Source of the DNA: a virus
Strand: one strand, 5' to 3'
UHGV virus genome: UHGV-1592390
DNA: 11,745 nucleotides
The notes under the pieces were generated by a model that saw only the letters and a program-made list of their open reading frames with translations, had not been told where the DNA came from and ran no database searches. The position numbers and the translations under genes were made by a program. This document shows, in pieces, positions 7,571 to 10,367 of the stretch; the first letter of the stretch is position 1, and every line of letters starts with the position of its first letter.

Positions 7571-10367
<2,797 letters not shown>

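Follow-up and report, generated by a model that had tools for sequence, protein, structure and literature searches.

The DNA analysed here is a single stretch of 11,745 nucleotides (the window, whose numbering is used below unless a database record is named). It is bacteriophage P1, 99.8% identical to the records AF234172 and NC_005856, and window position 7300 corresponds to position 16966 of AF234172. The prt and pro genes lie on the plus strand next to the divergent darB, and lyz is followed on the minus strand by lydD and lydE (Table 1). By the listing of open reading frames, both copies of a shared decamer, TAACAAGTGA, are intergenic, one lying between darB and prt and the other 5' of the lyz ATG, and no third copy was found within the window with one mismatch allowed. 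A run of A residues in the lyz leader (11235-11240) is polymorphic, with six in the window, five in AF234172 and five to seven in other haplotypes; the resulting 1-bp indel shifts the offset between the window and AF234172.

Table 1. Genes, promoter elements and predicted transcription starts at the prt and lyz loci of the window
Feature	Position	Strand	Details
darB	803-7570	-	2255-aa ORF; ATG at 7570-7568
Decamer TAACAAGTGA, prt-sense copy	7581-7590	+	Exact; TAAC plus first 6 nt of the LPpro -22 box
LPpro	7585-7603	+	-22 region plus -10; drives prt-pro
LPpro -22 region (Lpa box) AAGTGACTA	7585-7593	+	Record annotation; 8/9 vs AAGTnACTT
LPpro -10 TAAATT	7598-7603	+	Annotated; 4 nt past box; invariant A2 and T6 present
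Predicted prt-pro transcription start	7610-7611	+	Promoter geometry: 7 nt past -10, 22 nt from box centre 7589
prt, portal protein	7646-9355	+	569-aa ORF, TTG start at 7646; first gene served by LPpro
pro, head processing	9348-10367	+	Second gene of the LPpro operon
lydE	10347-10562	-	After lyz and lydD, same strand
lydD	10412-10666	-	After lyz, same strand
lyz, endolysin	10659-11216	-	ATG at 11216; first gene served by LPlyz
Predicted lyz-lydD-lydE transcription start zone	11294-11300, about 11297 (+/-3)	-	Promoter geometry
LPlyz -10 TATCCT	11304-11309	-	Annotated; 4 nt past box
LPlyz	11322-11304	-	-22 region plus -10; drives lyz-lydD-lydE
LPlyz -22 region (Lpa box) AAGTGATTT	11314-11322	-	Record annotation and AF125376; 8/9 vs AAGTnACTT
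Decamer TAACAAGTGA, lyz-sense copy	11317-11326	-	Exact

Both copies fall in promoters, LPpro and LPlyz, that the reference annotation has listed since the 2004 genome. In AF234172, LPpro occupies 17251-17269, with a '-22 region' at 17251-17259 and a -10 (minus_10_signal) at 17264-17269, and LPlyz occupies 20969-20987 on the minus strand, with a '-22 region' at 20979-20987 and a -10 at 20969-20974. NC_005856 carries both promoters with the same two elements, and the phage P7 record annotates LPpro in the same way. The lyz promoter box dates back to a 1999 record of a P1 fragment, AF125376, in which the 9 bp are labelled 'late promoter sequence of lysA', and a note in the later record describes LPlyz as identical to the 'previously identified late promoter of gene 17'. 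The LPpro entry, in contrast, has no cross-reference to an earlier experimental identification, and its annotation may have originated from sequence prediction. Additional sigma-70 promoters, PdarB and Plyz, are predicted near the two sites in the P1 record. LPpro and LPlyz are already known, and the decamer is a rediscovery of two annotated features rather than anything new.

Relative to the annotated 9-bp box, the decamer is offset by 4 nt towards the 5' side and consists of six box bases and the preceding TAAC, the AC of which is conserved in the promoter family. The first-pass annotation was exact in reporting the identical 10-mer upstream of both genes, and the hexamers that it named are placed as claimed, with TTAAAT at 7597-7602 (6 nt on from the decamer) and CATTAT at 11312-11307 (4 nt on). 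As -10 elements, however, they are respectively 1 nt and 3 nt out of register with the annotated TAAATT and TATCCT. Its statement that there is no good -35 is borne out, as canonical sigma-70 promoters (TTGACA, 16-18 nt, TATAAT) are absent from both sites; a consensus scan called no sigma-70-type promoter over them, and the hexamers found at a 17-nt spacing are AATCCT and CGTAGC. Promoter geometry predicts starts close to the 7609 and 11300 proposed earlier, implying leaders of about 35 nt to the prt TTG and about 80 nt to the lyz ATG. A literature search found no usable transcription-start mapping for P1. No regulatory RNA structure was detected in the P1 lyz leader (window 11297-11205, minus strand; z = 0.18).

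We rebuilt the late-promoter consensus by aligning the 11 annotated late promoters of AF234172 (LPmat, LPpro, LPlyz, LPdar, LPs, LPsit, LP23, LP26, LPpmgL, LPhot and LPpac). The alignment gives nnnAnTTnAC-AAGTGACTT-nnnn-TAnAAT, which can be simplified to AC-AAGTnACTT-N4-TAnnnT and in which the AAGTnACTT box is a perfect 9-bp inverted repeat. Invariant in all 11 are T4, A6 and T8 of the box, each present in LPpro and LPlyz, and A2 and T6 of the -10; the spacer between the two elements is 4 nt in 10/11. The AC just 5' of the box is about as informative as box positions 1-3, at 1.36 and 0.94 bits. A comparison with P1 late promoters had been called for on the strength of the decamer, and both sites turn out to be listed members that fit the 11-member consensus. 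With the nine other promoters they share the AC-AAGTnACTT motif, the 4-nt spacer, TAnnnT, the absence of a -35, an association with morphogenesis or lysis operons, and late kinetics. They differ from the others in that a single mismatch falls in the 3' half of either box (AAGTGACTA and AAGTGATTT), in that their -10 elements (TAAATT and TATCCT) are rather poor, and in that they share with each other a longer 5' match (TAAC) than the family requires.

Two members of the alignment are outliers. LPpmgL (AF234172 78495-78513) scores 10.5 bits within its own training set, has no 5' AC and is a reverse reading of the LP26 box, and LPhot (AF234172 86521-86544) has a spacer of 9 nt rather than 4 nt. 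The genes behind these two promoters have the smallest late rise in the RNA-seq data described below (3.4-4.0), and LPpmgL and LPhot may be weak or not genuinely Lpa-driven.

Family membership was also assessed, on both strands of the window, with a leave-out matrix of 25 nt built from eight other late promoters with LPpro, LPlyz and LPhot excluded. The two best sites were 7579-7603 (+) at 23.5 bits and 11328-11304 (-) at 20.8 bits, with the third-ranked site at 10.0 bits. In 200 first-order Markov windows that served as the null, the top-scoring site reached 10.3 bits in the median window and 19.8 at most, and the second-best did not exceed 12.9. The whole P1 genome was searched, in two halves, with IUPAC patterns. 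The loose pattern AAGTNACTT-N5-A-N3-T, allowing 2 mismatches, was barely enriched: one half gave 58 matches where 44 were expected, and the other 53 where 45 were. Only matches with 0-1 mismatch are informative.

Two further sites came to light in these genome-wide comparisons. Inside the 5' end of gene 7, at AF234172 76804-76780 (-), the unannotated CACAACAAGTGACTGGTGATAACCT closely resembles LPpro: the AC extension precedes a box with 8/9 matches, and a TAACCT -10 follows after 4 nt (19.3 bits). This site may be an internal late promoter of the gene 26-25-7-24-6-5 operon. A perfect AAGTGACTT box lies antisense at the repL start codon (AF234172 50744-50726, -), where it is followed by TAGC and CAGCAT. 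It has no 5' AC and scores 8.3 bits, and its occurrence is near chance (about 0.2 such perfect matches expected genome-wide).

Matches from a plasmid collection, 494 in all, were nearly all at least 95% identical and of no use for measuring constraint. The diverged relatives were Cronobacter phage JK004 (about 72-75% DNA identity), which encodes an Lpa homologue with 67% identity, and a clade in IMG/VR (Prt 82-83% identical in amino acids); IMG/VR as a whole and JK004 gave 23 distinct prt-upstream haplotypes for the analysis of constraint at LPpro. Across these 23, 17/19 columns of LPpro (7585-7603) were invariant as against 2/22 in 7604-7625, the invariant columns within LPpro including 8/9 of the box and 5/6 of the -10. 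The prt promoter in the diverged relatives reads TTCACAAGTGACCAGTGTTA(A/C)ATT, and the lyz promoter reads TAACAAGTGATTT-GGAG-TACGAT, TAACAAGTGATTT-GGTA-TAGGAT or TCAACAAGCGATTT-GGGA-TACGAT; in the JK004 lyz promoter box, AAGCGATTT, a C replaces the otherwise invariant T at position 4. At both genes the box, the 4-nt spacing and T1, A2 and T6 of the -10 are kept and the neighbouring sequence has been replaced; at lyz this replacement covers the leader and the stretch of about 20 nt separating the box from the C1 operator. Judged from these alignments, the survival of the box, the spacing and T1/A2/T6 alone is the signature of a constrained promoter. The position of CATTAT is not conserved, being occupied by GAGTAC, GTATAG or GGATAC in the diverged relatives; since the TAnnnT register is kept and the CATTAT position varies, the -10 register of LPlyz is fixed at TATCCT.

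The lyz leader of JK004-like phages (L006, about 424-441, and its equivalents in L087-L090) contains a GC-rich hairpin, CGCGCC-CGGA-GGCGCG, in which the loop bases vary, together with a second long stem; the fold z-scores are -2.3 and -1.7. Two further observations concern C1 operators. Inside the 5' end of darB, at window 7500-7516 (+), ATTGCCCTAATGTATTT agrees at 14/17 positions with ATTGCTCTAATTAATTT, the C1 operator Ossb. This site is unannotated in the P1 record, its P7 equivalent is labelled 'hypothetical C1-controlled operator Op(pro)', and its JK004 counterpart is a near-consensus ATTGCTCTAATAAATCT (L005 334-350) that is intergenic in that phage. Lying about 85 bp 5' of LPpro, this candidate may be a real C1 operator because it is conserved. 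At the divergent ssb/lyz promoter region the window differs from AF234172 by two bases, 11363 and 11383. One makes Ossb (window 11350-11366) ATTGCTCTAATTATTTT in the window as against ATTGCTCTAATTAATTT in AF234172, and the other falls where the -10 elements of the predicted promoters P1ssb and Plyz overlap. Both look like polymorphisms, as they are also found among natural P1-like haplotypes.

The timing of expression was taken from a supplementary RNA-seq table (PMC8201110) of log fold changes 10 and 30 min into P1vir infection. Between these times prt rose by 6.49 and pro by 6.32 in the LPpro operon, and lyz rose by 5.29, lydD by 5.74 and lydE by 8.85 in the LPlyz operon. Genes of the other nine late operons had a median rise of 6.82, and all genes outside late operons one of 4.27 (late-operon genes against the rest, Mann-Whitney p = 3e-12), a contrast that is relative, as genome replication lifts all P1 genes between 10 and 30 min. 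The rises of prt and lyz against the median elsewhere support the earlier description of both as late functions. We note that lyz was already fairly abundant by 10 min (6.05) and that its rise is smaller than that of typical late genes, a profile that fits an extra upstream sigma-70 promoter, the annotated Plyz, with LPlyz not being the sole promoter of lyz.

We consider it about 95% probable that each copy of the decamer is the 5' part of an activator box, one in the P1 late promoter LPpro and the other in LPlyz, and nothing that contradicts a late-promoter reading of these sites was found. The first-pass annotation had described P1 late promoters as a -10 with an Lpa box near -22, and the record annotation, the leave-out matrix, the diverged relatives and the RNA-seq kinetics all support that description. 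The reading draws on sequence anatomy, membership of the matrix family, constraint and late mRNA kinetics from our analysis, with Lpa binding and the role of SspA taken from literature on the family in general and the starts from geometry. According to PMC3152322, which cites Hansen et al. (2003), P1 late transcription requires Lpa, whose conserved binding sequence is centred at -22, together with the host co-activator SspA. In PMC1891329, which likewise cites Hansen et al. (2003), SspA is described as RNA-polymerase-associated, as not itself binding late-promoter DNA, and as being thought to link polymerase with DNA-bound Lpa. In the P1 record lpa lies behind a C1-controlled sigma-70 promoter (Olpa/Plpa). 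On this mechanism, once C1 repression is lifted, Lpa (gp10) would be made from its C1-repressed early promoter and would occupy AAGTnACTT at LPpro and LPlyz, the box standing in place of a -35. The Escherichia coli sigma-70 holoenzyme with SspA would then open TAAATT and TATCCT, and transcripts would begin near 7610-7611 and near 11297. In the literature, Lpa and SspA enable the holoenzyme to initiate at promoters that are otherwise inactive, and the head and lysis genes, namely those for the portal, head processing and endolysin/holin, would therefore be turned on late.

One explanation for the shared decamer that had to be weighed is coincidence: two AT-rich intergenic regions would happen to share ten bases, and the copies would have no common function. 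An exact 10-mer common to the regions upstream of prt (75 nt) and lyz (168 nt), both read in gene sense, arose in 2.6% of 20,000 dinucleotide shuffles. Window-wide, 245 repeated 10-mers were seen against about 153 +/- 14 expected by chance, and with 153 expected a repeated 10-mer is in itself unremarkable. The earlier estimate that the match is unlikely by chance thus stands for the two upstream regions (p about 0.03) but is weak to modest as sole evidence. The 94.8-kb P1 genome has three exact copies of TAACAAGTGA, the third lying antisense within res (AF234172 4746-4755, +), where the next bases are GTCAACAAAATCC, the box is broken and there is no -10 (3.2 bits); it is probably a non-functional chance copy. 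The proposed search of the genome for further copies upstream of late genes yielded one exact copy that has no -10, and near-versions at LP23 (CAACAAGTGA) and LPmat (TGACAAGTGA). By this comparison the decamer is mostly family consensus and not private to prt and lyz, and the main weight lies in how well the two sites fit the late-promoter family and in their constant register to the -10 rather than in identity of the 10-mer. Against accident stand the scores of 21-24 bits at both sites, above every null window, with a matrix derived from other promoters, the same 4-nt register to TAnnnT at the two sites, the annotation of both as late promoters, and the fact that both are conservation islands in diverged relatives; the matrix scores and the conservation therefore effectively refute it. 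Alternatively, LPpro and LPlyz could be activator-independent sigma-70 promoters in which the -10 functions through some weak or extended contact further upstream and the box is incidental or is bound by another factor, such as the C1 repressor. The box does have a TTGACA-like hexamer at its 5' edge (TTAACA in LPpro, CTAACA in LPlyz) and extra sigma-70 promoters, PdarB and Plyz, are predicted nearby. However, this hexamer is 12 nt from the -10, too close for a promoter that needs 16-18 nt, and neither site was called as a canonical promoter; the box is unlike the C1 operator (ATTGCTCTAATNAATTT), the genes downstream are late rather than early in their kinetics, and the literature assigns Lpa to the box. 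We regard this explanation as highly improbable.

Another possibility, which would add to the activation of prt by Lpa rather than replace it, is that the LPpro box works in both directions and also drives the divergent darB late. The box is an inverted repeat, and LP26 and LPpmgL are annotated on opposite strands of a single common box. The kinetics of darB are late (4.8 to 11.7, a rise of 6.84, rank 20/105), yet its only annotated promoter is the predicted sigma-70 promoter PdarB, at about window 7626-7656 (-). The mirrored site, TAGTCACTT-GTTA-AGGATT, moreover resembles LPpmgL, TAGTCATTT-GTTG-AATATT. A search for an Lpa box facing darB found no good one: the mirrored LPpro box scores 6-8 bits, under the median best score of random windows, and its -10, AGGATT, has a G at the invariant A2. 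The implied start, about 7568, would lie inside the darB ATG and downstream of the Shine-Dalgarno, and the transcript therefore could not encode DarB from that ATG. We rejected bidirectional activity of LPpro as very unlikely on account of the G at position 2 of the -10, the score of 6-8 bits and the start inside the ATG.

The late-promoter reading of LPpro and LPlyz leaves one mildly new angle, the asymmetric 5' extension of the box. The TTGACA-like hexamer combines the first box base with the five bases before it, the conserved AC and its T-rich 5' neighbours; the match is 6/6 in LPpac and 5/6 in LPpro, LPmat, LPdar and LPs, with a mean of about 4.2/6. It is conceivable, as a speculation to which we attach little likelihood, that the recognition element is larger and more asymmetric than the 9-bp palindrome and that Lpa and SspA reposition region 4 of sigma-70 onto this displaced -35-like hexamer. 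If so, the hexamer would also set the direction of the promoter on an otherwise palindromic box.

The arrangement at LPpro and LPlyz has parallels in other systems. The C-dependent promoters of phage Mu (Plys, PI, PP and Pmom) resemble it in that a phage activator stands in for a poor or absent -35 at sigma-70-transcribed late genes; Mu C, however, binds at -30 to -55, upstream of polymerase (PMC3152322), whereas the P1 box is centred at -22, within the polymerase footprint, and SspA is needed. Phage T4 late promoters (gp55/gp33/gp45) are likewise essentially a -10-region element with no -35, but T4 swaps sigma-70 for gp55 and couples activation to the sliding clamp (PMC3152322), while P1 keeps the host sigma-70 and adds Lpa and SspA. 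A likeness in the use of SspA exists with the Francisella MglA-SspA-PigR virulence promoters, for which the P1 Lpa-SspA system has been cited as a precedent (PMC1891329), as in both a polymerase-bound SspA-family protein contacts a DNA-binding activator; the Francisella system belongs to another organism, uses another activator and has no AAGTnACTT box.

The result for LPpro and LPlyz leaves P1 biology unchanged. It has value as a calibration, in that a reading of raw sequence alone picked two genuine P1 regulatory sites together with the right mechanism. Its practical value is modest: diverged relatives confirm the -10 register, the two promoters form conservation islands across P1-like phage-plasmids, and the simple matrix AC-AAGTnACTT-N4-TAnnnT finds the two cleanly and aids late-operon annotation across the numerous P1-like plasmid prophages found in Enterobacteriaceae.
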